Of a stretch of DNA of 64,000 nucleotides, positions 4,057 through 63,738 are shown one piece after another. Below the pieces are notes generated by a model. That model did no database searches. It had not been told where the DNA came from and saw only the letters and a program-made list of their open reading frames with translations. A program made the translations under genes and the position numbers. How positions within the stretch are numbered: the stretch's first letter is position 1; each line of letters opens with the position of its first letter. Source of the DNA: Gammaproteobacteria bacterium (GTDB taxonomy: Bacteria; Pseudomonadota; Gammaproteobacteria; JABABF01); assembly GCA_965215045.1 (NCBI GenBank), contig OZ244031.1:1386626-1450625 (forward strand). Direction: 5' to 3'.

Positions 4057-5064
4057 GTGCACAAGCAGCGTGTTCTCACCGGTATTACCACGACCGGTGC
4101 CCCGCACCTGGGGAATTATGCCGGTGCCATTCGCCGCGCCGTCGACCTCAGCCGCGATGCTTCCATAGAATCTTTCTACTTCTTGGCCGACTACCACGCA
4201 CTGGCCAAATGTGATGACCCCGAGCGGGTTGCGCGCGCCACGCTGGAGGTCGCCGCCGGCTGGCTCGCCCTGGGCCTCGACGTGGAGCACGCGCTTTTTT
4301 ACCGGCAGTCGGATATCCCTGAAATTGCCGAGCTCACATGGCTCTTGCACTGCGTGGCGGCGAAGGGGCTCATGAACCGGGCGCATGCCTACAAGGCCGC
4401 GGTGTCTGAAAACACGGGGGCCGGGGAGGACCCCGACCGGGCGATCACCATGGCGCTGTTCTGTTACCCGGTGCTGATGGCGGCGGATATCTTGCTTTTC
4501 AAGGCGCATCGCGTCCCGGTGGGCAGTGACCAGAAGCAGCACGTGGAGATGACCCGCGACATCGCACAGCGTTTCAATCATCATTACGGGGAACGGTTCG
4601 TGCTGCCGGAGGCGGAGTTGCCGGAGGGTGGGGAGACGTTGCCGGGGTTGGATGGCCGGAAAATGAGCAAGAGTTACGACAACACGATTCCGCTGTTTGC
4701 CGAACGGAAAAACTTGCGCAAGCTGGTGATGAAAATCAAGACCAATTCCCAACCGCCCGAAGAGCCCAAGAACCCCGAGGGCTGCACCCTGTTCCAGCTC
4801 TACAATGCTTTTGCCGGCCGTGAACAGGGCGAGGAACTGCGCAATCTCTATGCCCGGGGCATCGCCTGGGGCGAGGTCAAGGAACGCTTGTTCGCACTGC
4901 TGGATGCGGAACTGGAAGAACCGCGCCGCAAGTACCAGGCCCTGTTGGCGGACAGCGCGCAACTGGAAGAGACTTTGCAGCAGGGTGCCCGGCGCGCGCG
5001 CGAGTTGAGCGGCCCGTTCATGCGTGAGTTGCGCCATGCGGTCGGCTTGCGCCCCCTGCACTGA
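4057..5064 (+). CDS. trpS: Tryptophan--tRNA ligase
   Basis: GTG start; class I aaRS motifs TGAPHLGNY (HIGH-like) and KMSKS present. Confidence 0.9.
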   Translation: MHKQRVLTGITTTGAPHLGNYAGAIRRAVDLSRDASIESFYFLADYHALAKCDDPERVARATLEVAAGWLALGLDVEHALFYRQSDIPEIAELTWLLHCVAAKGLMNRAHAYKAAVSENTGAGEDPDRAITMALFCYPVLMAADILLFKAHRVPVGSDQKQHVEMTRDIAQRFNHHYGERFVLPEAELPEGGETLPGLDGRKMSKSYDNTIPLFAERKNLRKLVMKIKTNSQPPEEPKNPEGCTLFQLYNAFAGREQGEELRNLYARGIAWGEVKERLFALLDAELEEPRRKYQALLADSAQLEETLQQGARRARELSGPFMRELRHAVGLRPLH

Positions 5065-5065
5065 T

Positions 5066-5227
5066 CCGGGTTCTTGTTTTTTTATGCCGTGGAGGAATGC
5101 TTGCGATGAGTTGCGGGTTCTTGTTTTTTTGTGCCGTGGAGGAATGCTTGCGATGAGTCGCGGGTTCTTGTTTTTTTATGCCGTGGAGGAATGCTTGCGA
5201 TGAGTCGCGGGTTCTTGTTTTTTTCGC
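5066..5227 (+). repeat. Tandem direct repeat, ~47 bp x 3.4, duplicating the SD + start codon + first codons of the downstream MotA/ExbB-like gene
   Basis: Unit cgggttcttgtttttttatgccgtggaggaatgcttgcgatgagt repeated head-to-tail; copies differ at 1-2 positions. Confidence 0.85.
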
Positions 5228-6243
5228 TGGTATTGTTCAGCCTGATTTTTGCCAACCTGGGATACCTGCTGGGTCTCTCCCCGTGGCTGGGCCTGGCTCC
5301 CCCGCTGCTGTTGGTGCCGTCCTGGCTCCTGTTGCGCCGCACGGCGGACGGTGCGGGACGGGTCCGACTCGCACTCGTGCTCTGCAACCAATTGAGCCTG
5401 CTGCTGGTGGCACTGGCACTGGCCGGCCAGGCCTGGTTCGTGCTGGCCGAGACCGGCGTCTCCGTCAGGATCGGTCCTCTGCTGCCGCTGTTCGTGGCGG
5501 CACTCGCTCTCTACCTGTTGCACGTCTCCCTGTCCCGCCTGCGCGCCCGGGACGTGCCCGGCATGCCGCATTTCCTGCAACTGCTGACCGGGCCGGCACT
5601 GTTGCCCACCGTGTGCACGGGCCTGATCCTCACCGCCTTTGCCCTGGTGCTGCTCGACTGGCTGCAAACGGATCTCGGCATTTTGCAGAGTGTCTCGGTG
5701 CGTTTCCTGGAGCGCGGCCTCATCCCGCCGCTGACCCTGCTGTTGTTTTTTTGCGGGCTCCTGATCCTGGTCAGCAAGTGGGGAGCAAACTGGTACCTGT
5801 ACCAGGTGCTGGCCGGCCGGCTCGGCACGGAAACCGCCATGCGCATCGCTGCGACTATCGCCGCCCTGGGTTCGCCGCGGCGCGAAATCCTGGAAGACCA
5901 ATTGCAGTTGATCCGCTATCGTTCCGAGGAGTCCTACCTGATCCCGCGTTATATCAGCTGGGCGGTGCCGATTCTCGGTTTTATCGGCACGGTGCTCGGC
6001 ATCTCCCTGGCGGCGGACGGCATCCGCCGTATCGTCAGTTCGCAAGAGGGGCTCACCGGGCTTTCCAGTGACCTGGGACAGGCGATCGCCCCGCTGGGGA
6101 TCGCCTTTGACACCACCCTGATCGCCCTGTCGCTGAGCGTGGTCCTGACCCTGATCCTGACCCTGGTGCAGCGCGGCGAGGAGCGGGTGCTCTCCGGCCT
6201 GGAGGAGCGGCTGCGGGGAGCGAGCAGTGGCACCTCGCACTGA
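5200..6243 (+). CDS. MotA/TolQ/ExbB-family proton-channel protein, long form (~347 aa) with a polytopic N-terminal extension
   Basis: ATG at 5200 preceded by GGAGGA; C-terminal region AVPILGFIGTVLGISLA...LGQAIAPLGIAFDTTLIALSLSVVLTLIL matches the MotA/TolQ/ExbB channel signature. An in-frame upstream GTG at 5131 lies within the repeat. Confidence 0.6.
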   Translation: MSRGFLFFSLVLFSLIFANLGYLLGLSPWLGLAPPLLLVPSWLLLRRTADGAGRVRLALVLCNQLSLLLVALALAGQAWFVLAETGVSVRIGPLLPLFVAALALYLLHVSLSRLRARDVPGMPHFLQLLTGPALLPTVCTGLILTAFALVLLDWLQTDLGILQSVSVRFLERGLIPPLTLLLFFCGLLILVSKWGANWYLYQVLAGRLGTETAMRIAATIAALGSPRREILEDQLQLIRYRSEESYLIPRYISWAVPILGFIGTVLGISLAADGIRRIVSSQEGLTGLSSDLGQAIAPLGIAFDTTLIALSLSVVLTLILTLVQRGEERVLSGLEERLRGASSGTSH

Positions 6244-6769
6244 GTCCAGGGGGCCGGGAGGTGCCGCCCGGGGCCTGCGCCGGCAGGAGGAAAACAATGC
6301 GCCGCTGCTGGCACTGTTTGGCGGCATTTTCGCCCTGCTGCTGGTGTTCTTGCTGCTGGTCAACCTGCTGTTTGAAGAATCCCTGCGAGAACGCCTGGAG
6401 CAGGCGGAGGAGAAGGGGCTCTACCGTATCCAGTCCGAGTACGGCGGCGAGGGTTTCGTGGTGATCACCTTCCCGGAGACCCTGCGCATCGTCGAGACCG
6501 GGGAAGGCGTGCAGCGGGGCCGTATATGCGAGGAGAGCAGTGTCTTCGTCCAGTACGCCCGGCGCGTCTACAGCAAGGACCGCAAACAACTGGTCTTTGC
6601 GCTTTTAGAGGGCAGCGTGTCGACCATGGCCGAAGCCCGGGGGTGTATTCGCCAGTTGATGCCCAACCGGCCGCTGAACATCGGCTGGATCATGGCGGAC
6701 AATGAATTGCTGAAGTCGGTGTCGCTGGACGATATCCCCCCGTACATCCGCGATTTTGCTGAACCCTGA
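6227..6769 (+). CDS. ExbD/TolR-like single-pass membrane protein (putative)
   Basis: GTG start overlapping the upstream stop; Arg-rich N-terminus then TM NNAPLLALFGGIFALLLVFLLLVNLL resembling the ExbD NxTPxxDVxLVLLIIF anchor, followed by a ~110 aa periplasmic domain. Good codon bias. Confidence 0.45.
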   Translation: MAPRTESRGPGGAARGLRRQEENNAPLLALFGGIFALLLVFLLLVNLLFEESLRERLEQAEEKGLYRIQSEYGGEGFVVITFPETLRIVETGEGVQRGRICEESSVFVQYARRVYSKDRKQLVFALLEGSVSTMAEARGCIRQLMPNRPLNIGWIMADNELLKSVSLDDIPPYIRDFAEP

Positions 6770-6801: not shown

Positions 6802-8727
6802 TTGCGAGGCGCACATCGCCGCCGCTCGCCACCGCACCCGGGCCCCGTGAGACAGCGTCTGCCCGATTTCGCCGGCGTCGCGCTGGTCGATATCCTCGCC
6901 AACGGCGTCGGGATGCTGATTATCATCATTGTGCTCAGCATCTCCGCGCGCTTTGCCCAGGAGGAAAAGCAGTTGGAGCAGGTCGACGATGTCTCGGTGG
7001 TGTTGAGTCGCCAACTGGCGACTTCCATCGTGCTGAACACGCTGTCTGCCGCCCCGCCGGCGCGCCTGCACGATTACGAGAAGTCGCCGCTGGACCAGAA
7101 CCTGGATTTCCAGCGCATTCCCATCCTCGAACTGCACCGGGAATTCGTCCGTGATTATTACAGCGGCCGGGTCTTTTTACGCAAGGAATTGCTGCTGGAA
7201 CAAAATCGTCTCGACGAGTTTGTCGCCGCCTTCAGCCCGCTCCAGAAACGGGGTATCCGGGTGGACATCTATGATATTCGACAGTTTTACCTGGCGATGT
7301 CTATTCTGCGCACCCACGGCATCGACCCGCGGCACTGGCACTTTCTCAGCGGCGGTGGCATGGGCGTGCAGGATGCCGGTTTTTGTCCGGGCGGCACGCC
7401 GGGCAGCGAGTGTACCGGCATCGGCGGCGGTGCCGGTGCCGAGGTCCTGGCACAGCGGGACCTGGACCGGCTGTTTGCCGATGGTTCCGATGCCCGTGGG
7501 GAAGAGGAGGGCGATGCAGAGGACGGGGAGGGTTCCGGCACCGGGGGGGAAGGGCAGGAGGAGGCACCGGCCGTGGCGGCCGGGGGAGGGGCCGGGGGAG
7601 GCGAAGGAGAAGAGGGGGGCGAAGACGCAGAGGAGACCGGTGCCCAGTGGTTGCCCGGTGAATCGGACTTGTCAAACATCGCCCAGGGCTCGGCCGCAAG
7701 CCTGGTGCGGTTTCCCGCCAGCGGTGCCATTCCGCAGAGTGCAGATGCCCCGGGTGCCGGTAGCGCAGATTCGATGGCGGGCCAGCCATTGGACAGTTCC
7801 CACCAGGACCTGATGCAGAGCATCGGCAGAAGCAGTACCTTGCAGGACAACGGCCAGGGCAGTGCAGTGCGCCCGCAAAAGGCGCGCTTTCGCCGGGCGG
7901 TGCCGGAAGAGAATGAGCGGCAGCGAAACCGGAGGAATAACGGCTCCCCCGGCGAGCAGACCCGCAGGCTCGACACACTGCCGCCCCTGCGTGATATCCT
8001 GGCGATCCTGCTGGGCTACATGCGCGAAGTGCAGGAACTGCTGGACCGGGGTCAGTCCCCGCTGCCCTTGTTGCAGGGTTTCAGCGACAGCATGGAGGAG
8101 CAGTTGCAGAACCCGCCGCCCGTGCGCGCCGCAGACGAGGAGCTGATTCTCCCCCTGGTCGAACATTTCATCGCCTACTGGCCCGATGATTCGGCACCGG
8201 ACGTTCGACAGGAATTGCGCCCGCAATTGTCTTCGGCGGCACTGATTTTGCCACCCAATACCGGGGTGGAGGAACTGGTACTGGGCGGGAACGAGTACCA
8301 GGAAAAACTGCCGGAGCTGCCGTCACCCAAGCCGGTGCGGGTGCGTATCAACCTGTATCCCAGCGTGTTTCGCGGGCTGTTGCAGAACCTGGAACTTCAC
8401 AGCGTACTGCTGATGCCCCCCGAACAGCAGGACCCGGGACAGTTCCGCTGGCGGGCGGTAACCTACATTTCACCGGCCTTTGATGATTATGTCTTCGGCT
8501 TTGTCTACGCGGCCCTGGATGCGGACGGCGAACTTCTGGTGCAGGCCGATGCCAACCGCGTGCAGGTGGGTCAGCACTTCACCCGTACCGTCGCCCCTCC
8601 CAGGGAGTTTGACGTGCGCGACTGGATGACGCTCTTCTATGCGCTGCTGGTCGGCGCCCTGCTGTTGTTCCTGGTGCCGGCACTCGCCTACTGGTGGCGG
8701 GTGCGCCGTCCCGTGCCGGCGCACTGA
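6802..8727 (+). CDS. Large membrane protein with ExbD/TolR-like N-terminal anchor, acidic Gly/Glu-rich disordered linker, globular C-terminal domain and C-terminal TM helix
   Basis: TTG start (alternative GTG ~6847). N-terminal TM VALVDILANGVGMLIIIIVLSI is ExbD-like; residues ~200-290 are GGGxGEGEEGGED low-complexity; ends with TM WMTLFYALLVGALLLFLVPALAYWW. Confidence 0.5.
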   Translation: MRGAHRRRSPPHPGPVRQRLPDFAGVALVDILANGVGMLIIIIVLSISARFAQEEKQLEQVDDVSVVLSRQLATSIVLNTLSAAPPARLHDYEKSPLDQNLDFQRIPILELHREFVRDYYSGRVFLRKELLLEQNRLDEFVAAFSPLQKRGIRVDIYDIRQFYLAMSILRTHGIDPRHWHFLSGGGMGVQDAGFCPGGTPGSECTGIGGGAGAEVLAQRDLDRLFADGSDARGEEEGDAEDGEGSGTGGEGQEEAPAVAAGGGAGGGEGEEGGEDAEETGAQWLPGESDLSNIAQGSAASLVRFPASGAIPQSADAPGAGSADSMAGQPLDSSHQDLMQSIGRSSTLQDNGQGSAVRPQKARFRRAVPEENERQRNRRNNGSPGEQTRRLDTLPPLRDILAILLGYMREVQELLDRGQSPLPLLQGFSDSMEEQLQNPPPVRAADEELILPLVEHFIAYWPDDSAPDVRQELRPQLSSAALILPPNTGVEELVLGGNEYQEKLPELPSPKPVRVRINLYPSVFRGLLQNLELHSVLLMPPEQQDPGQFRWRAVTYISPAFDDYVFGFVYAALDADGELLVQADANRVQVGQHFTRTVAPPREFDVRDWMTLFYALLVGALLLFLVPALAYWWRVRRPVPAH

Positions 8728-8730
8728 GCG

Positions 8731-10326
8731 ATGCGCGGACAAATCCCCGTCCTGTCGCTGGTGCTGCTGCTGGTGCTGCTGCTGGCACTGGCGGCGGTCA
8801 CCCGTCTGCGCCTGCCCTCTGCCCAACTCGGCACGGTGCCGGTTCTCATGGAGGCGAGTGCTGCGTCGAGTGCCCGGGGACGCGCGGTCGATGCGCTGCT
8901 GTTGCCGCACCTGGCAGAGCTGGGCCGTGACCCGCAACTGGCCGGGGCACTGGATGCGCCGCAAAAAATGGTCGAACTGCGCGGTTTCTGGGTCGATGCC
9001 TGCGAGGTGCGCCAGGGGGATTACGAGCGCTTCCTGTTGTGGTTGGAAAAAAATCCGCGGCGCCTCCCATCACTGGCCGCGCCGGGACAACCCTACAATT
9101 GGCGCTATGACACGAGTTCCCGCGGGCACCGCCTGGCCGGACGCCTGCAGTCGCCGGCCAGCGGCGTCAGTTATTTCGACGCCTACGCGTACTGCCGCGC
9201 CGCGCGCGGGCGTCTGCCCTTCAGCGAGGAGTGGCAGGCCTTGGCCGGCGGCGAGGAGGGGCGGCTCTACCCCTGGGGAGATGATTTTCGCCAATCCCCC
9301 TGGCCCTACCTGGAAGCCGATCTCAACGCCTCGCAACTGTGTGGCCTGCACCCGGATACCAGCACCCCGGAAGGCGTGCACGACCTGGCGGGCGGGGTCA
9401 TGGAATGGACGCAGGGACAGCGTATCCAGGCACCGCAGGAGAGACGGGCCGCACTGCACGGGGCACCGCCCGAGCGCAAGCCGCCCCAGGGTGTGCACGC
9501 ACTGAACGTGGTACAGCGTCCGATGACGCCCAGGCACCGCAGCCATCATGTCGGTTTCCGTTGCATTTACAACAATCGGCCCAGGCGCCAGCTGCCCTGG
9601 GGAGTGCGCCCGAAGCGGGTGCGCATCCCCGGCGGGCGCTACCGCACCGGTATGCCGCCGGATGCGCGACTGCCCAGGCTCGCCGCCCTGTTGCCGCCGG
9701 AGCGGCTGGGCAAGCTCGCCGCCCTGCTCCAGGGGGGCGAGCGCAAAGCGCGCACCATCCGCTTCGGCCGCTGCGAGGTCAGTCGTGCCCATTACCGCGT
9801 GTTCCTGGGCGACCCGATGGTGCGCCTGGGCCTGTTCGGTAACGAGAACGAGCCCCCGGACGTGAATTACACGCCCCTGGATTGGACCCAGCAGCAACGG
9901 CAGCCGGCACTGCCGGTGACAGGCGTGGATTGGTGGTCGGCGGACGCTTTTGCGCGCTGGGCCGGCGGCCGGCTGCCCAGTGCCGACGAATGGGATATTG
10001 CCGCCGCCGGTCCCGGGGCCACACGCTACCCGTGGGGAGATGAATACGACCCGGAGCGGGCGATGACCGGCGACCTGCCGCAGGCGACCCCGGCGGCCTG
10101 CGGCATCCGGGAACAAGACCTGAGTGCCGCCGGTCTGCACGACCTGGCGGGCAATGTCTCGGAGTGGACCCGCAGCATCACGGTGGAAAAACGGGGTTAC
10201 GCCATGCTGGTCAAGGGGGGCAGCTACCTGTTGCCGGGTGAGGCCAGCGCGCGCAACGGCTTTGCCCGGGCGGCACCGCTGAATCATCGCACGGCAGATA
10301 TCGGTTTTCGCGTTGTGTTTGATTGA
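8731..10326 (+). CDS. Secreted/membrane-anchored protein with two formylglycine-generating-enzyme (FGE/SUMF1, DUF323) domains
   Basis: N-terminal signal/TM (VLSLVLLLVLLLALAAV); two copies of the FGE-sulfatase fold signature (GFRxV..., xxDxAxAYCxWAGxRLPxxxEW, HDLxGNVxEWT, LVKGGSY). Confidence 0.65.
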   Translation: MRGQIPVLSLVLLLVLLLALAAVTRLRLPSAQLGTVPVLMEASAASSARGRAVDALLLPHLAELGRDPQLAGALDAPQKMVELRGFWVDACEVRQGDYERFLLWLEKNPRRLPSLAAPGQPYNWRYDTSSRGHRLAGRLQSPASGVSYFDAYAYCRAARGRLPFSEEWQALAGGEEGRLYPWGDDFRQSPWPYLEADLNASQLCGLHPDTSTPEGVHDLAGGVMEWTQGQRIQAPQERRAALHGAPPERKPPQGVHALNVVQRPMTPRHRSHHVGFRCIYNNRPRRQLPWGVRPKRVRIPGGRYRTGMPPDARLPRLAALLPPERLGKLAALLQGGERKARTIRFGRCEVSRAHYRVFLGDPMVRLGLFGNENEPPDVNYTPLDWTQQQRQPALPVTGVDWWSADAFARWAGGRLPSADEWDIAAAGPGATRYPWGDEYDPERAMTGDLPQATPAACGIREQDLSAAGLHDLAGNVSEWTRSITVEKRGYAMLVKGGSYLLPGEASARNGFARAAPLNHRTADIGFRVVFD

Positions 10327-10455
10327 GAGGGGCCGGGCGGCGGCCACCGGTTTTGGCCTTGTGTTTGATTGAGAGGGGCCGGGCGGCGGCCACCGGTTTT
10401 GGCCTTGTGTTGGACTGGGCGGGGGCGCGCAGCGGCCACCGGTTTTGGCCTTGTG
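10310..10455 (+). repeat. Tandem direct repeat ~46 bp x 3 spanning the stop codon of the FGE gene
   Basis: ttgtgtttgattgagaggggccgggcggcggccaccggttttggcc x2 plus a diverged third copy; abuts the 3' end of tRNA-Leu. Confidence 0.85.
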
Positions 10456-10477
10456 TTCACCCCGGCGGCTCCGGGCC

Positions 10478-10565
10478 CTGGTACCAGAGGCCGGACTCGA
10501 ACCGGCACGCTCTTGCGAGCAATGGATTTTGAGTCCACCGTGTCTACCAATTTCACCACTCTGGC
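10478..10565 (-). tRNA. tRNA-Leu (anticodon CAA)
   Basis: Reverse complement GCCAGAGTGGTGAAATTGGTAGACAC...ACTCAAAATCC...GGTTCGAGTCCGGCCTCTGGTACCA: type II tRNA with long variable arm, anticodon loop CUCAAAA, encoded CCA. Confidence 0.8.
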
Positions 10566-23365: not shown

Positions 23366-23524
23366 CCCCGCATTCGCCGGGTGGTATCGGGCCGGGGAGC
23401 GGGTCTGGGGCCTGGGTGGTGCTGTCGGGGAGCGGGTCTGGGGCCTGGGTGGTGCTGTCGGGGGAGCGGGTCTGGGGCTTGGGTGGCACCCCGCATTCGC
23501 GGGATGGTATCGGGCCGGGGAGCA
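23366..23524 (+). repeat. Composite repeat: 33-bp unit x3 bracketed by a 32-bp direct repeat
   Basis: ccccgcattcgccgggtggtatcgggccgggg [gggagcgggtctggggcctgggtggtgctgtcg]x3 ccccgcattcgcgggatggtatcgggccgggg. Confidence 0.8.
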
Positions 23525-23605: not shown

Positions 23606-23680
23606 GGGTGGTTAGCTCAGCGGGAGAGCATCTGCTTTACAAGCAGAAGGTCGGCGGTTCAATCCCGTCACCACCCACCA
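23606..23680 (+). tRNA. tRNA-Val (anticodon TAC)
   Basis: GGGTGGTTAGCTCAGCGGGAGAGCATCTGCTTTACAAGCAGAAGGTCGGCGGTTCAATCCCGTCACCACCCACCA, near-identical in architecture to E. coli tRNA-Val(UAC). Confidence 0.85.
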
Positions 23681-23692
23681 CCAGGCAACTGC

Positions 23693-23769
23693 GGACCGGT
23701 AGTTCAGTTGGTTAGAATGCCGGCCTGTCACGCCGGAGGTCGCGGGTTCGAGTCCCGTCCGGTCCGCCA
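23693..23769 (+). tRNA. tRNA-Asp (anticodon GTC)
   Basis: GGACCGGTAGTTCAGTTGGTTAGAATGCCGGCCTGTCACGCCGGAGGTCGCGGGTTCGAGTCCCGTCCGGTCCGCCA. Confidence 0.85.
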
Positions 23770-24647: not shown

Positions 24648-25424
24648 ATGCGAAGGCAGAAGAAAAAAAACAATGAGGCGGCGAGGGCATCCCCCCCCCC
24701 CCCCCCCCCCGATCCGAGAGTCGACAGGGGGCATTCCCCGCCACCGATCAAACTGCGGCGGATTCCCGCTGAATTGATCGCCGTGTCTTCCGAGTTCCCC
24801 TGGAAAAAAATACTGCGCCGTTTCCCGGTCTGCGCCCTGTTTTTTGCGCTCTGCCTGGTCGGTGCCCTGCTGGTGCGGATGGCACAGGAATACCCGTTAT
24901 GGATTGCGCCGTGGACTTTTCCCGGCTATGCAGACCCCGTGCTTGGCCTGGCGGTGGATTTCCGGCAATTCTGGCGCCTGCTGACGCCGGCTTTTTTGCA
25001 TTTTGGCATCGCCCATCTCGCATTCAACCTGCTGGGCCTGTGGATCTTCGGTGCTCCCATCGAGGGCGGACGCGGCAGCCTGCGTTTTGCGCTGCTGCTG
25101 GTCGTCAGTGCGGTGTGCAGTCACCTGGCGCAATTCCAGGCCACGGCGGCGACCAATTTCGGCGGGCTGTCCGGTGCCGTGTATGGCCTGGTCGGCTACC
25201 TGCTGATCTGGAACCTGGGCAATGCGCACCGGGGTTTGATCGTGCATTACCCGCTGTTGGGCCTGATGCTGGTCTGGATGCTACTGGGCTTTAGCGGTTT
25301 GCTCGACCTGTTGCTGGGAATACGCATGGCGAACTTCGCCCACCTGGGCGGTTTTCTCGCCGGCGTCGCACTGGCCTTCCTGGACCGTTTCACCGATTAC
25401 CTGTCCCCACGGTTTGCGCGGTGA
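24648..25424 (+). CDS. Rhomboid-family intramembrane serine protease
   Basis: Catalytic GGLSGAVYGL (GxSG) and AHLGGFLAGV (His) motifs within 6 predicted TMs. The true start may lie downstream of the poly-C tract (e.g. GTG in ..ELIAVSSEF..). Confidence 0.65.
   Translation: MRRQKKKNNEAARASPPPPPPDPRVDRGHSPPPIKLRRIPAELIAVSSEFPWKKILRRFPVCALFFALCLVGALLVRMAQEYPLWIAPWTFPGYADPVLGLAVDFRQFWRLLTPAFLHFGIAHLAFNLLGLWIFGAPIEGGRGSLRFALLLVVSAVCSHLAQFQATAATNFGGLSGAVYGLVGYLLIWNLGNAHRGLIVHYPLLGLMLVWMLLGFSGLLDLLLGIRMANFAHLGGFLAGVALAFLDRFTDYLSPRFAR
24691..24710 (+). repeat. Homopolymeric C20 tract
   Basis: 20 consecutive cytosines; read in the 24648 frame they encode SPPPPPP. Confidence 0.9.
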
Positions 25425-34775: not shown

Positions 34776-35485
34776 AAAACCATTCACCTGTGCGCAAGAT
34801 CCTGATTGTCGATGATGAAGCGGCAGTGCGGCGCATGATTCGTACGACCCTGGAAATGCGCAAAGAATTCACCTGCCTGGAAGCACCGGACACGATGCAG
34901 GCCAGGAAGCTACTCCACGAAGAACAACCCGACCTGATGTTGCTCGACTGGATGTTGTCCGGCATCAGCGGCATCGAACTGCTGCGCCAGCTGCGCAGCC
35001 AGGAAGAGAACCGGGACCTGCCCGTGATCATGCTCACGGCGAAGGACACCGAGCGCAGCATGGTGCGCGGCCTGGAACAGGGTGCCGACGATTACATCAC
35101 CAAGCCTTTCTCGCCGCGCGAACTCGTGGCGCGGATTCATGCGGTCCTGCGCCGCCGGGGAGAACACCGGGAAGACGCCGTGTTATCGGCGGGCCCCCTG
35201 ACCCTGGACCCCGTGCAGCACCACGTCAGCTGTGCCGGCCAGCCGGTGCACTTGCGGCCCATGGAATTTCGCCTGCTGCATTTTTTCATGTCGCACCCGG
35301 GCAGGACTTACAGCCGCGGCGCGCTGTTGAACCAGGTCTGGGGTGCGAACGCCTACCTGGAAGAGCGCACCCTGGACGTGCACATCAGCCGCTTGCGCCG
35401 CGTACTCAAGGGCTGCGGTGACTGCAGTCGCTGGGTGGACACGGTAGTCGGTTTCGGGTATCGCTTCACACCGCCGACATCGTGA
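34772..35485 (+). CDS. phoB: Phosphate regulon response regulator PhoB
   Basis: OmpR-family RR (ILIVDDE...DLMLLDWMLSGISGIEL...YITKPFSPRELVARI) directly upstream of phoR and pstSCAB-phoU. Confidence 0.8.
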   Translation: MKNHSPVRKILIVDDEAAVRRMIRTTLEMRKEFTCLEAPDTMQARKLLHEEQPDLMLLDWMLSGISGIELLRQLRSQEENRDLPVIMLTAKDTERSMVRGLEQGADDYITKPFSPRELVARIHAVLRRRGEHREDAVLSAGPLTLDPVQHHVSCAGQPVHLRPMEFRLLHFFMSHPGRTYSRGALLNQVWGANAYLEERTLDVHISRLRRVLKGCGDCSRWVDTVVGFGYRFTPPTS

Positions 35486-36762
35486 AACAGCAGCTGCAGC
35501 CCCTGTTCCGCATGCTGCGGGAACTGCTGCTGTTTTGTATCGCCGGTCTTTTGCCGGGGGCACTGCTGGGCGTCCCGCTGCAGGGATTGGGCGTCGGCGT
35601 CGGCACCTGGCTGCTCTGGAACCTGGTCCAACCGCTGCGCCTCTGGCAGTGGTTGCAGCGGGAGACGACGAGCCCGCCGCCCAGGAGCCTGGGTCTGTGG
35701 CAGTCGATCTTCACAAGCCTGGGTCGCCGCCAGGCCGAGCAGGCCGCCTCGGCGGAAGCGGTGGCACCTTTGCGCGAGTTATTCCAGAATTTCAACAGCG
35801 CGGTGATCCTGCTGGATGCCGACGGACGCATCGCCTGGTGCAACCAGGCTGCGACCTCGCTGCTGGGAGTGCGCTTTCCCGAAGACCGACGCCGTCACCT
35901 GGGCAACCTGCTGCGCACCCCGGAACTGTTGCATTTCCTGCAGCAGATGCCAGAGCAGACACCGCTGGAATGCGCATCGCCCGGCGATGCCTCGCGACAC
36001 CTGCGTTTCGGCTGTGCGCGCCTGCCGGAGGGCAGGGGTATTGTCTTTGTCCAGGATATTACCCAGCCGCACCGGCTGGAGAAGATGCGCCGGGACTTTA
36101 TTGCCAATGTCTCGCACGAATTGCGCACCCCGCTGACCGTGATCATCGGCAGCCTGGAACTCATGGACGAGCCGCTGCCGCCTGCCAAGCTGCGTGAAAT
36201 GCAGGAAGACATGCGCCACCAGGCCGGGCGCATGTCAGACCTGGTGCAAAGCCTGTTGCGCCTGGCGCAGCTCGAGAGTATGACCGAGCCCGCCGCCCGC
36301 GAACACATCCCACTGCGCCTGCTGCTGGCAGAAGTCTGTGACAGTATGAAAGCCAAGGCAGGTGAAGGGCGGCGCCTGGAATCGCACTGTCCGGATGCGC
36401 TGGTACTGCTGGGTTCCCGGGGCGAGTTGCAGAGCGTTTTCCTCAACCTGCTGGACAACGCCGTGCGCCACACCGACGCCCGGGAAGGCGTGGTGCAGGT
36501 AGAGGCCGAAGGCAGTGCCGAAGGTATCCGCGTGAAGGTGAAGGATAACGGTGCCGGCATCGAACGCCGACACCTGCCCCGGTTGACCGAGCGTTTTTAT
36601 CGCGTCGACGAAGGCCGGAATTCCGCCCAGGCGGGCACCGGCCTGGGACTGGCCATCGTCAAGCACGCCCTGGAACGACACCAGGGCGAGTTGCAAATTC
36701 ACAGCCGACCGGGGGAGGGCAGCGAGTTCGTGTGCTGCTTCCCGCCGGAGCGCAGCGGCTGA
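35482..36762 (+). CDS. phoR: Phosphate regulon sensor histidine kinase PhoR
   Basis: N-terminal TMs, PAS, H-box VSHELRTPLT, ATPase G-boxes (DNGAGI...GTGLGLAIV). Confidence 0.8.
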   Translation: MKQQLQPLFRMLRELLLFCIAGLLPGALLGVPLQGLGVGVGTWLLWNLVQPLRLWQWLQRETTSPPPRSLGLWQSIFTSLGRRQAEQAASAEAVAPLRELFQNFNSAVILLDADGRIAWCNQAATSLLGVRFPEDRRRHLGNLLRTPELLHFLQQMPEQTPLECASPGDASRHLRFGCARLPEGRGIVFVQDITQPHRLEKMRRDFIANVSHELRTPLTVIIGSLELMDEPLPPAKLREMQEDMRHQAGRMSDLVQSLLRLAQLESMTEPAAREHIPLRLLLAEVCDSMKAKAGEGRRLESHCPDALVLLGSRGELQSVFLNLLDNAVRHTDAREGVVQVEAEGSAEGIRVKVKDNGAGIERRHLPRLTERFYRVDEGRNSAQAGTGLGLAIVKHALERHQGELQIHSRPGEGSEFVCCFPPERSG

Positions 36763-36960
36763 ACCCCTCCCGCACATCGTCTGAACTCCTCCCGCACATC
36801 GCCGGGCCCCCTCCCAAACATCGCCTGACCCCTTCCCGCATAGCACCTGAACTCCTCCCGCGCACCGCCTGAACTCCTCCCGCGCATCGTTTGGCCTCCT
36901 CCCGCACATCGTCTGAACCCTTCCCGCACAGCACCTGAACTCCTCCCGCACAGCACCAGT
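36763..36960 (+). repeat. Array of ~9 degenerate 22-bp direct repeats (CTGAACTCCTCCCGCACATCGT-like) with no spacers
   Basis: Units begin immediately after the phoR stop and continue contiguously; they differ at 2-5 positions each. Confidence 0.8.
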
Positions 36961-37031: not shown

Positions 37032-38093
37032 ATGAGAGTCAATCGGCTTTTTAGTGCTTCCGTTCTTTTCAGTGCCACGGCGGTCGCTGCCCTGTCCCTG
37101 GGTGCTTCGCCGGCCATGGCGCGCGACAATATCCACATTGTCGGTTCTTCCACGGTCTACCCGTTTGCCACGGTAATTGCCGAGCGTTTCGGGCGTTCCT
37201 TCCGCTACAAGACGCCCACCGTGGAGTCCACGGGTTCCGGGGGCGGGCTGAAATTATTCTGTACCGGCGTCGGCGTCAATACGCCCGATATCACCAATTC
37301 TTCCCGGCGCATCAAGAAAACCGAGTATGACACCTGCCAGAAAAATGGCGTGCGCGACATCATCGAAGTCAAGATCGGGTATGACGGCATCGTGCTGGCG
37401 AATTCCGTGGATGCCGAGCGCATGCAACTGAGCCGGCGCGATATCTTCTTAGCCCTGGCGAAGGATGTGCCCGATCCCCGGGGTAGGGAGCGTTTCGTGT
37501 CCAACCCGTATCGCACCTGGAAAGACGTCAACCCCAAATTGCCGAACAAGAAAATCCGGGTGCTGGGGCCGCCGCCGACTTCTGGCACGCGCGACGCCTT
37601 CGTCGAGTTGGCCCTGGAGGGTGGTTGCAAGACTTTCCAGTGGGTCAAGGAGCTTAAGAAAAGAAACAAGCAGGCCTACAAGAGACGGTGTCACACGGTG
37701 CGTGAGGACGGTGCCTACGTGGAAGCGGGCGAAAATGACAACCTGATCGTGCAGAAGCTCAACGCCGACAAGGATTCCTTTGGCGTGTTTGGCTTCAGCT
37801 TCCTGAAAGAGAATAGCGACAAGGTGCAGGGTTCGGTGATCGAGGGCCGGGAACCCGCCTTTGCAGCCATTGCTTCGGGTGCCTACCCGGTGTCCCGTTC
37901 GCTGTACTTTTATGTCAAGAAAGCACATATCGGCCAGATTCGCGGTATCGAGCGCTACTTGCGCCTGTTTGTCAGCTCCCGTTCCATCGGCCCCCGCGGC
38001 CTCCTGGTGGAACGGGGCCTGATCCCGCTGCCAGCGACTGAATTGCGCAGCATGCAGAAAAGCGTCCACGGCCTCGCCAGCCTCCAGCTCTGA
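37032..38093 (+). CDS. pstS: Phosphate ABC transporter substrate-binding protein (PstS family)
   Basis: ATG with GAGG SD; signal peptide then HIVGSSTVYPF...GSGGG...SRSLYFYV PBP signatures. Confidence 0.75.
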   Translation: MRVNRLFSASVLFSATAVAALSLGASPAMARDNIHIVGSSTVYPFATVIAERFGRSFRYKTPTVESTGSGGGLKLFCTGVGVNTPDITNSSRRIKKTEYDTCQKNGVRDIIEVKIGYDGIVLANSVDAERMQLSRRDIFLALAKDVPDPRGRERFVSNPYRTWKDVNPKLPNKKIRVLGPPPTSGTRDAFVELALEGGCKTFQWVKELKKRNKQAYKRRCHTVREDGAYVEAGENDNLIVQKLNADKDSFGVFGFSFLKENSDKVQGSVIEGREPAFAAIASGAYPVSRSLYFYVKKAHIGQIRGIERYLRLFVSSRSIGPRGLLVERGLIPLPATELRSMQKSVHGLASLQL

Positions 38094-62490: not shown

Positions 62491-63363
62491 ATGCGTTTTG
62501 CCTATACAGAGAGCATGTGCGACCCGCTTCAGTACGCCCCCCTGGCGCGGGAGGCGGAGGCATGCGGTTTCGAGACCTTCCTGGTGCCGGACAGCATCTG
62601 CTACCCGGAAGTGTCCGACAGCAAGTATCCCTACACGGTCGATGGCGGTCGCGAATTCCTGGAGGACAAGCCCTTTCTCGACCCGTTCGTGCAGATTGCC
62701 GCCATGGCCCAGGTCACCAGCAAGCTCGAGTTCCTGACCTTCGTGCTGAAGACGCCGATTCGTCATCCGGTGCTGCTGGCCAAGCAGGTTGCCTCCCTGT
62801 CGGTGATATCGCAGAACCGTTTCCTGCTGGGCATGGGACTGAGCCCCTGGCCCGACGACTACGAGGTGTGTGGCGAGCGCTGGGAGGGTCGGCGCGAACG
62901 TTTTGATGAAATGATCCAGATCATGGCGGAACTGCTCAAGGGCGATTACTACGGTATCGACAGCGAGTTTTACAAGATTCCGCGCATCAAGATCTGTCCC
63001 GTGCCAGACCGGATGACGCCGTTCTACATCGGCGGGCACGCCGACAGTGCCCTGCAGCGTGCCGCGCGTCTGGCCGACGGCTGGGTGCACGCCGGCTCCG
63101 GCGGCAGGGATGACTTGGAAGACCTGCGCAAGATGGTCGCCCGCCTGCTGGAACTGCGCGCCGAGTACGGACGGGACGGGGAATTTCGCATTCTCGCGGT
63201 GAGCGGGCACGCCTACACGGAGGAGGGCCTGAAAATGCTGGAGGACATGGGCGTCACGGATGTCGGCATCGCCTTTCGCGACTTTTATCGCGAGGCCGAC
63301 ACCCAGTCCCTGGAGCAGAAAATTGAATTGATGCAGAACTACGCGAAGCAGTTCATCGGCTGA
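62491..63363 (+). CDS. LLM-class (luciferase-like) flavin/F420-dependent oxidoreductase
   Basis: TIM-barrel LLM signatures (ETFLVPD, RFLLGMGLSPWPDDYEV). Confidence 0.6.
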   Translation: MRFAYTESMCDPLQYAPLAREAEACGFETFLVPDSICYPEVSDSKYPYTVDGGREFLEDKPFLDPFVQIAAMAQVTSKLEFLTFVLKTPIRHPVLLAKQVASLSVISQNRFLLGMGLSPWPDDYEVCGERWEGRRERFDEMIQIMAELLKGDYYGIDSEFYKIPRIKICPVPDRMTPFYIGGHADSALQRAARLADGWVHAGSGGRDDLEDLRKMVARLLELRAEYGRDGEFRILAVSGHAYTEEGLKMLEDMGVTDVGIAFRDFYREADTQSLEQKIELMQNYAKQFIG

Positions 63364-63738
63364 TTTTGCCGGTGCTTGCGCGCCGGCTTTTTGTTACACG
63401 GGCTTGCGTTGCGGTTTGCGCTGTCGCCGCACACCGCTTGGCCTGCGTTTCTTGCGCTTGGCCCTGGGGTGCGAGCGATCGTAGTATCTTTTGCCGGTGC
63501 TTGCGCGCCGGCTTTTTGTTACACGGGCTTGCGTTGCGGTTTGCGCTGTCGCCGCACACCGCTTGGCCTGCGTTTCTTGCGCTTGGCCCTGGGGTGCGAG
63601 CGATCGTAGTATCTTTTGCCGGTGCTTGCGCGCCGGCTTTTTGTTACACGGGCTTGCGTTGCGGTTTGCGCTGTCGCCGCACACCGCTTGGCCTGCGTTT
63701 CTTGCGCTTGGCCCTGGGGTGCGAGCGATCGTAGCTCT
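63364..63738 (+). repeat. Tandem direct repeat 125 bp x 3 at the 3' end of xerC
   Basis: ttttgccggtgcttgcgcgccggctttttgttacacgggcttgcgttgcggtttgcgctgtcgccgcacaccgcttggcctgcgtttcttgcgcttggccctggggtgcgagcgatcgtagtatc repeated three times (last copy ...gtagctc). Confidence 0.9.

Follow-up and report, generated by a model that had tools for sequence, protein, structure and literature searches.

Ordinary intergenic minisatellites of bacteria (VNTRs) arise by slippage between short direct repeats. Among repeats with a more intimate relation to neighbouring genes are the mycobacterial MIRUs, which are described as tandem units of 40-100 bp located between the genes of operons and varying in copy number from strain to strain (Supply et al. 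1997; PMC3184786, PMC12548453). MIRUs form a dispersed family that occupies some 40-50 sites per genome and was apparently inserted by transposition (PMC3184786, PMC12548453), and a small ORF in the MIRU overlaps the downstream start at -4, an arrangement thought to minimise the impact of the element on the gene (PMC12548453). Haemophilus and Neisseria, too, possess repeats near gene starts in their SSR contingency loci, among them 7-bp repeats that precede hmw1A (PMC8262952) and repeats within 5'-UTRs (PMC12721329). The -4 overlap itself has a wider literature: gene pairs that overlap as ATGA are generally coupled by termination-reinitiation, usually more strongly when an SD lies within the upstream ORF (PMC6728339), and short upstream ORFs can serve solely for ribosome delivery (PMC12548453). 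Overlapping uORFs and upstream RBSs that have been tested act through coupling or, when very close, through occlusion (PMC13285730).

The locus described here lies in a 64-kb stretch of DNA, analysed as a whole and referred to below as the window, from a gammaproteobacterium-like lineage. A 47-bp array spans the start of a gene for a MotA/ExbB-like membrane protein of 347 aa, the first gene of a four-gene cassette downstream of trpS. The array is probably a recent, lineage-specific and local tandem amplification, that is, a minisatellite or VNTR, of the gene's own translation initiation region, and, its geometry leaving the protein unchanged, it has the look of an ordinary variable repeat that is tolerated rather than of a genetic switch.

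Architecture of the array

A first-pass annotation of this DNA had placed a 47-bp tandem repeat at 5066-5227 and described its unit as reiterating the SD, the ATG and the first eight codons of the gene. The repeat is real, with slightly different limits: TRF reports a single array here, at 5067-5224, with a period of 47, 3.4 copies, 97% matches and a score of 302. Read in register, it has the layout R-X-R-X-R-X-R, equal to 3.36 copies, in which R is an element of 17 nt and X an element of 30 nt (ATGCCGTGGAGGAATGCTTGCGATGAGTCG) that carries GGAGGA-N9-ATG (Table 1). Only two substitutions distinguish the copies, a T at 5112 where the others have C and a G at 5131 where the others have A. R matches four times and X three times, against 0.00 expected in 100 shuffles, which excludes a chance origin; as a head-to-tail series of units of at least 10 bp, beyond chance expectation, the array has the make-up of a VNTR or minisatellite. 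It starts 2 nt past the TGA stop of trpS (5062-5064) and ends 25 nt into the 347-aa gene. No copies of R or X occur outside the array in the 64-kb window, a scan of JGI metagenomes with the 47-bp unit gave no match, and Rfam gave none at E <= 1 over positions 4800-5500.

Table 1. Positions in the window of the 47-bp array, the genes on either side of it and the remaining tandem repeats.
Feature	Position	Strand	Basis or remark
trpS, tryptophanyl-tRNA synthetase	4057-5064	+	Pfam PF00579, E 1e-52; gene order same in relatives
47-bp tandem array, R-X-R-X-R-X-R, 3.36 copies	5067-5224	+	TRF; in-register copies; shuffles
R1, 17-nt CGGGTTCTTGTTTTTTT, non-coding copy	5067-5083	+	
X1, 30 nt; SD 5091-5096, ATG 5106, substitution 5112 T	5084-5113	+	
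R2	5114-5130	+	
X2; SD 5138-5143, ATG 5153, substitution 5131 G giving in-frame GTG	5131-5160	+	
R3	5161-5177	+	
X3, native translation initiation region; SD 5185-5190, ATG 5200	5178-5207	+	
R4, gene codons 3-9, ancestral copy	5208-5224	+	homologous coding T-run CTTTTTTCAGCTG kept in relatives
uORF1, 16 codons MSCGFLFFCAVEECLR; TGA 5154-5156 overlaps ATG 5153 as ATGA	5106-5156	+	
uORF2, 16 codons MSRGFLFFYAVEECLR; TGA 5201-5203 overlaps gene ATG 5200 as ATGA	5153-5203	+	
Weak hairpin GCTTGCGA-TGAG-TCGCGGGT, ATG in loop, then TCTTGTTTTTTT	5193-5212	+	terminator-like pattern
Further copies of the weak hairpin	5099-5118, 5146-5165	+	
MotA/ExbB-like membrane protein gene, 347 aa, first of cassette	5200-6243	+	PF01618, 22.6 bits against cut-off of 22.9
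Cassette gene B, about 156-180 aa, one N-terminal hydrophobic segment, no known family	6227-6769	+	
Cassette gene C, 641 aa, no known family	6802-8727	+	
Cassette gene D, two FGE-sulfatase domains	8731-10326	+	PF03781, E 5e-56, two stretches; PDB relatives SUMF/FGE
Second array, 46 bp x 3.4, at other end of cassette	10302-10457 (to about 10476)	+	TRF
33 bp x 2.8, G-rich	23393-23486		96% matches
22 bp x 8.8, unit CTGAACTCCTCCCGCACATCGC	36759-36952		77% matches, hence outside the count of four
125 bp x 3.0	63364-63738		100% identical

Start codons and chained mini-ORFs

The array holds three SD/ATG pairs, namely the native pair and two extra ones, where three additional pairs had been counted at first pass, and the spacer between SD and ATG is 9 nt, not 10 (GGAGGA 5185-5190 and ATG 5200 in the native pair). 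Some copies had been thought to lie in frame with the gene. Both SD-linked extra ATGs are out of frame, ATG 5106 in frame 2 and ATG 5153 in frame 1; the in-frame codon, GTG 5131, sits at a different position of the unit, is preceded only by a T-run and has no SD. A further ATG, at 5191, directly abuts the SD.

Assignment of the gene start to ATG 5200, and not to GTG 5131, is supported by the protein family. The N-termini of 120 homologues share the pattern M..R.xLxLYL...N..Y.LG..PW, and initiation at 5200 puts the query in register with it; the N-terminus of the nearest relatives reads MTLALLFSAALFLLIFPNLAHLFG, against MSRGFLFFSLVLFSLIFANLGYLLG in the window gene. The 347-aa form was also the choice of the gene callers in both assemblies that hold the protein. 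An N-terminal extension of 23 aa from GTG 5131, as had been proposed, was rejected: it has neither an SD nor a counterpart in the family, and the homologous N-termini and both gene calls fit 5200.

A feature absent from the first-pass annotation is the 16-codon ORF that runs from each extra ATG and ends at the TGA of the next ATGA. With a period of 47, one less than 3 x 16, and a gene that opens with ATGA, every extra ATG starts an ORF that stops in this way. The two mini-ORFs are chained, each possessing a complete GGAGGA-N9-ATG and each linked to its successor, ultimately the gene, by a 4-nt stop/start overlap. From 1.36 copies upwards, the last one retains the native SD, ATG and frame, and with this 3'-most start always intact no change in copy number can shift the frame of the gene or alter its product. 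The T7 run in the unit, proposed as an additional hotspot of slippage, shows no variation in length in a very small sample, with T7 in 6/6 R copies from two strains; relatives carry T6.

Folding places the native SD in a predicted pairing with the U-run. In synthetic alleles of 1.36-5.36 copies, partition-function calculations gave no clear trend in the accessibility of the last SD/ATG, and equilibrium folding predicted the SD to be paired in every one of them. Such pairing in all alleles, if these models hold, could make coupling matter more than the word 'neutral' implies.

The downstream gene and its cassette

The 347-aa protein has 565 homologues, some of which are named MotA, TolQ or ExbB at source or carry PF01618; it matches ZorA weakly (E 6e-4) and, in sequence comparison, no PDB entry. 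For proteins B and C, neither Pfam nor NCBIfam nor PDB yielded a relative, profile searches included. Identification of the cassette as a defence system was rejected, since that weak ZorA match is the only one and the other three proteins have none. The FGE protein gives partial matches to GldK/PorK (E 2.8e-13), and by analogy the idea arises that the cassette might be a proton-driven envelope machine loosely like GldKLMN. The literature searched holds no description of the four-gene cassette.

The cassette is conserved in about 60 fetched loci (L002-L084), mostly from MAGs with sponge-associated taxon names, which are assigned to Gammaproteobacteria, Nitrospirales, Myxococcota, Thermodesulfobacteriota and Alphaproteobacteria. 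Protein sizes across these loci are about 350 aa for the MotA/ExbB-like protein, 156 for B, 570-640 for C and 525 for the FGE protein. Within the 641-aa protein of the window, positions 7545-7633 encode a Gly/Glu-rich low-complexity stretch built of 12-nt and 18-nt repeats of the GGGGGAGGGGCC type.

Copy-number variation and origin of the repeat

An exact-protein look-up with the 347-aa protein retrieved a second assembly, a 7,660-bp contig of GCA_964348175.1 (designated L001). The flanks of the two sequences are about 99.8% identical and the encoded 347-aa protein is the same. In L001 the site reads TGATC-R-X-R-CGCTGG, or 1.36 copies against 3.36 in the window, its sole X being identical to X3, and the distance from the end of trpS to the ATG is 41 nt against 135 nt. 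Global alignment yields some 12 SNPs in 5.3 kb (0.23%), mostly synonymous, and one internal indel in about 5.4 kb, an exact segment of 94 bp, equal to two units. This pattern marks L001 as a distinct strain under purifying selection, which differs structurally from the window by two repeat units only. Copy number thus appears to vary between strains by whole units, as in a VNTR, in a sample of two consensus assemblies of which one is a short contig. The expectation that copy number could change is borne out by these alleles; the accompanying expectation of an altered N-terminus or reading frame is not, the last copy always being the native one. Nor does repeat number switch the gene on or off, as both alleles encode the identical 347-aa protein. 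The L001 contig ends within the low-complexity stretch at 7545-7633, where the last few differences between the assemblies cluster, and this stretch represents either another variable region or a break in the assembly. No additional alleles emerged: the protein database holds nothing between 100% and 58% identity, and contig L086 starts inside the gene.

The repeat arose locally. In the three nearest relatives (57-58% identity) the genes likewise run tsaB-uppP-trpS-cassette, with a plain spacer of 26-28 nt from trpS to the ATG and no repeat, and no array was found at the start of this gene among about 80 related loci. An array near this gene in L072 was considered as a recurrence and rejected, for it sits within an upstream coiled-coil gene. 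The coding sequence of the relatives retains the homologous T-run (ATGAC.CTTGCCCTGCTTTTTTCAGCTG), which identifies the R inside the gene as ancestral and the upstream R copies as derived. Comparison of filled and 'empty' sites gives no sign of a foreign insertion, since the empty sites of the relatives show that the unit is made up of SD, ATG and first codons taken from the gene itself; it is a duplication.

Even the minimal R-X-R allele contains a 17-nt copy of codons 3-9 right after the trpS stop (5067-5083 in the window, 2962-2978 in L001). Simple tandem duplication gives whole copies and cannot yield 1.36 of them, and none of the duplication-plus-deletion schemes tried by hand for the upstream R cleanly fits the junction TGATC|CGGG. 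As to age, the two extra copies bear two substitutions in 94 bp, against 0.21 expected at the divergence of the strains (P ~0.02). This excess raises the possibility that the array predates the strain split and was retained, L001 representing a contraction, an outcome that neutrality neither predicts nor forbids.

Other repeats in the window

By the criteria of a period of at least 20, at least 2.5 copies and at least 85% matches, the window contains four arrays, where the rate in about 1 Mb of loci from relatives predicts 0.45 per 64 kb (Poisson P = 0.0012); the density is about nine times that in those loci. With the 22-bp array included, the units of the five arrays are mutually unrelated, being no more alike than shuffles. 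Every array is located in a spacer or spans a gene end, and three begin at most 24 nt from a stop codon, a placement expected if only harmless duplications survive. The presence of several arrays with unrelated units in one 64-kb stretch points to a general mutational process, with a tendency to short tandem duplication, as their likely source. Exact-protein look-ups with the genes flanking the other arrays retrieved no further contig.

Each of these arrays has its own setting. The 46-bp unit repeats the last eight codons of gene D, its TGA and a GC hairpin, and the array abuts tRNA-Leu(caa) at 10479-10565 on the - strand. In build it resembles the 47-bp array, both having 3.4 copies with a partial unit of about 18 nt, and the unit sequences are unrelated. 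The 33-bp array occupies the spacer that separates tRNA-Val/tRNA-Asp (23606-23769) from a gene for a type I dehydroquinase (- strand, start ~23300). The 22-bp array lies between a gene for a phoR-like histidine kinase (35482-36762), on whose stop codon it starts, and one for a pstS-like phosphate-binding protein (37032-38093), which follows after about 80 nt; the array's periodicity of 2 x 11 nt ahead of a Pho-regulon gene suggests possible PhoB-type boxes. The 125-bp array starts immediately past the stop of a gene for a luciferase-like monooxygenase (62491-63363), each unit opening with a strong, bidirectional-looking terminator (GCCGGTGC-TTGC-GCGCCGGC followed by T5, -15.5 kcal/mol); the triplication appears to be very recent. 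A run of 20 C at 24691-24710, just after the NAD kinase gene, falls within the 5' part of, or immediately upstream of, a rhomboid-protease ORF (24648-25424) whose Pfam domain begins at residue 106. A homopolymer this long is a far more classical candidate for phase variation by slippage than the 47-bp array; its length could also be poorly resolved by long-read assembly.

A probably tolerated duplication and its alternatives

The observations suggest how a duplicated gene start could have survived. Gain and loss of copies would most likely involve the 17-nt R repeats on either side of the 30-nt X, by way of slipped-strand mispairing or unequal recombination. Every extra copy would then bring a self-contained SD, an ATG and a mini-ORF of 16 codons ending exactly at the start that follows, and ribosomes loading on it would terminate, reinitiate across the -4 overlap and pass from start to start until they reach the gene. 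Such a hand-over would preserve expression and so explain why the duplication is tolerated; on this geometry the array presumably persists because expression is kept, and the net effect of copy number would be small, a graded change at most and never an on/off switch. Other periods would have been less forgiving. With a unit of 48, each copy would have added 16 residues to a transmembrane N-terminus, and with one of 46, ribosomes would have run out of frame across the true start.

It is unlikely, though by no means fanciful, that copy number is instead selected to vary and that the array is a translational rheostat or contingency locus. Extra SD/ATG pairs would then be coupled entry sites whose traffic melts the structure around the SD and yields more protein or, in a variant of the same reading, would occlude the start so that more copies give less; upstream RBSs are known to act in either way (PMC13285730). 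A copy-number difference between near-identical strains is consistent with such a reading, as are a strong SD at optimal spacing in every unit, the exact chain of -4 overlaps, extra copies that look older than the strain split and a native SD whose predicted pairing with the U-run upstream translation could open. The first-pass proposal of a contingency locus nevertheless finds no support, since the frame cannot be shifted, the protein is identical in both alleles and the uORF geometry would buffer expression. An effect on frame or an on/off effect is impossible here, the unit is far longer than classical hypermutable repeats, the six T7 runs of the two strains are invariant, and folding gives no dependence of the last SD/ATG on copy number. 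Nothing similar occurs at this gene in some 80 relatives, and four other arrays with unrelated units at gene ends speak for a mutational process over selection at this locus. Copy number may still have some part in the tuning of translation. The hairpin in each unit invites a different reading, in which hairpin and U-run partly terminate read-through from trpS and successive copies progressively insulate the cassette. Weak folding (-8.7 to -11.2 kcal/mol, z -2.06, equalled by 8/200 shuffles, against -15.5 for the clear terminator in the 125-bp array) makes stacked attenuators quite improbable, even though the three unit hairpins fit the terminator pattern, with a stem followed by UGUUUUUUU, and no promoter-like site was found between trpS and the 347-aa gene, their co-transcription being implied by the short spacer of the relatives. 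The pattern scan finds four sites where 2.0 +/- 1.2 are expected, the relatives lack the hairpin, ribosomes translating the uORFs would melt it, and the last of the 'terminators', within the first 25 nt of the gene, would abort the gene's own mRNA.

Very little probability attaches to an assembly artefact, by which the extra copies in the window would be spurious, or the single copy in L001 a collapse, and the polymorphism unreal. Tandem repeats are prone to collapse, and the L001 contig is short and breaks off in low-complexity sequence, as is typical of assembly from short reads, its probable origin. Two substitutions, however, tell the window copies apart, and the length of the array is an exact multiple of the unit. 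Every 55-mer across the window array is unique, as reasoned from the sequence, so that the window allele would not collapse and the L001 allele has to be a different one, at least in its sequence. The mostly synonymous SNPs, moreover, mark L001 as a genuinely different strain, and the contig of the window contains four other clean arrays. There is scarcely any likelihood that the unit belongs to a mobile repeat family of the MIRU type that inserted at this start codon: size class, position within an operon and -4 coupling agree with accounts of MIRUs (PMC12548453, PMC3184786), but the unit is built from the SD, ATG and first codons of the gene itself, is confined to this one array within the 64 kb, is unrelated to the other arrays and has no match in the JGI metagenomes. 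A broader proposal is that tandem amplification at gene boundaries, affecting here a translation initiation region, there a stop with its hairpin, a full terminator or the 22-bp unit before the pstS-like gene, is a lineage-wide means of systematic, strain-variable dosage of expression signals, in which the 47-bp array would act as a 'ribosome-loading ladder' that sets the output of the cassette; this is improbable.

If local amplification with preserved expression is the correct account, the locus offers a clean natural example of why some duplications of gene starts survive, namely by combining a unit length of 2 mod 3 with a start that reads ATGA. It would open no new mechanism and, by itself, would have no bearing on a long-standing question. 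Of practical use is the array as a strain-typing marker for an uncultured sponge-associated bacterium, and it carries a warning for annotation, in that gene callers could choose GTG 5131 or a 297-aa out-of-frame ORF at 5178.

Comparison with known systems

Set beside ordinary VNTRs, the array shares the head-to-tail arrangement, high identity, whole-unit differences between strains and a location outside essential coding sequence; it departs from them in straddling a start codon, so that it repeats expression signals, and in belonging to an unusually array-rich region. Like the SSR contingency loci, it lies near a gene start, differs in copy number among close strains and could have a graded effect on expression. 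Those loci have highly mutable units of 1-9 bp that act by frameshift, promoter spacing or 5'-UTR processing, whereas the unit here is 47 bp, cannot shift the frame of the gene and is known as two alleles in two assemblies. The mini-ORFs resemble coupled uORFs in their 4-nt stop/start overlap, in the SD inside the upstream ORF and in having no likely function of their own beyond ribosome delivery; unlike known examples they are duplicates of the downstream start and form a chain of two, and it is their geometry that argues for coupling.

As in MIRUs, the 47-bp unit is placed between co-oriented genes, trpS and the cassette, and its ORF overlaps the next start at -4. Unlike them, it copies the gene's own initiation region, is unique in 64 kb and unrelated to neighbouring arrays, and forms no dispersed family at many loci within the 64-kb window or the JGI metagenomes; the host, too, is not a Mycobacterium but belongs to a gammaproteobacterium-like, sponge-associated MAG lineage. 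Judged by these features, the array is MIRU-like in its -4 coupling geometry and is not a member of the MIRU family. Should the account given here be correct, the same solution that mycobacteria found in MIRUs would have been reached at this locus through local duplication.
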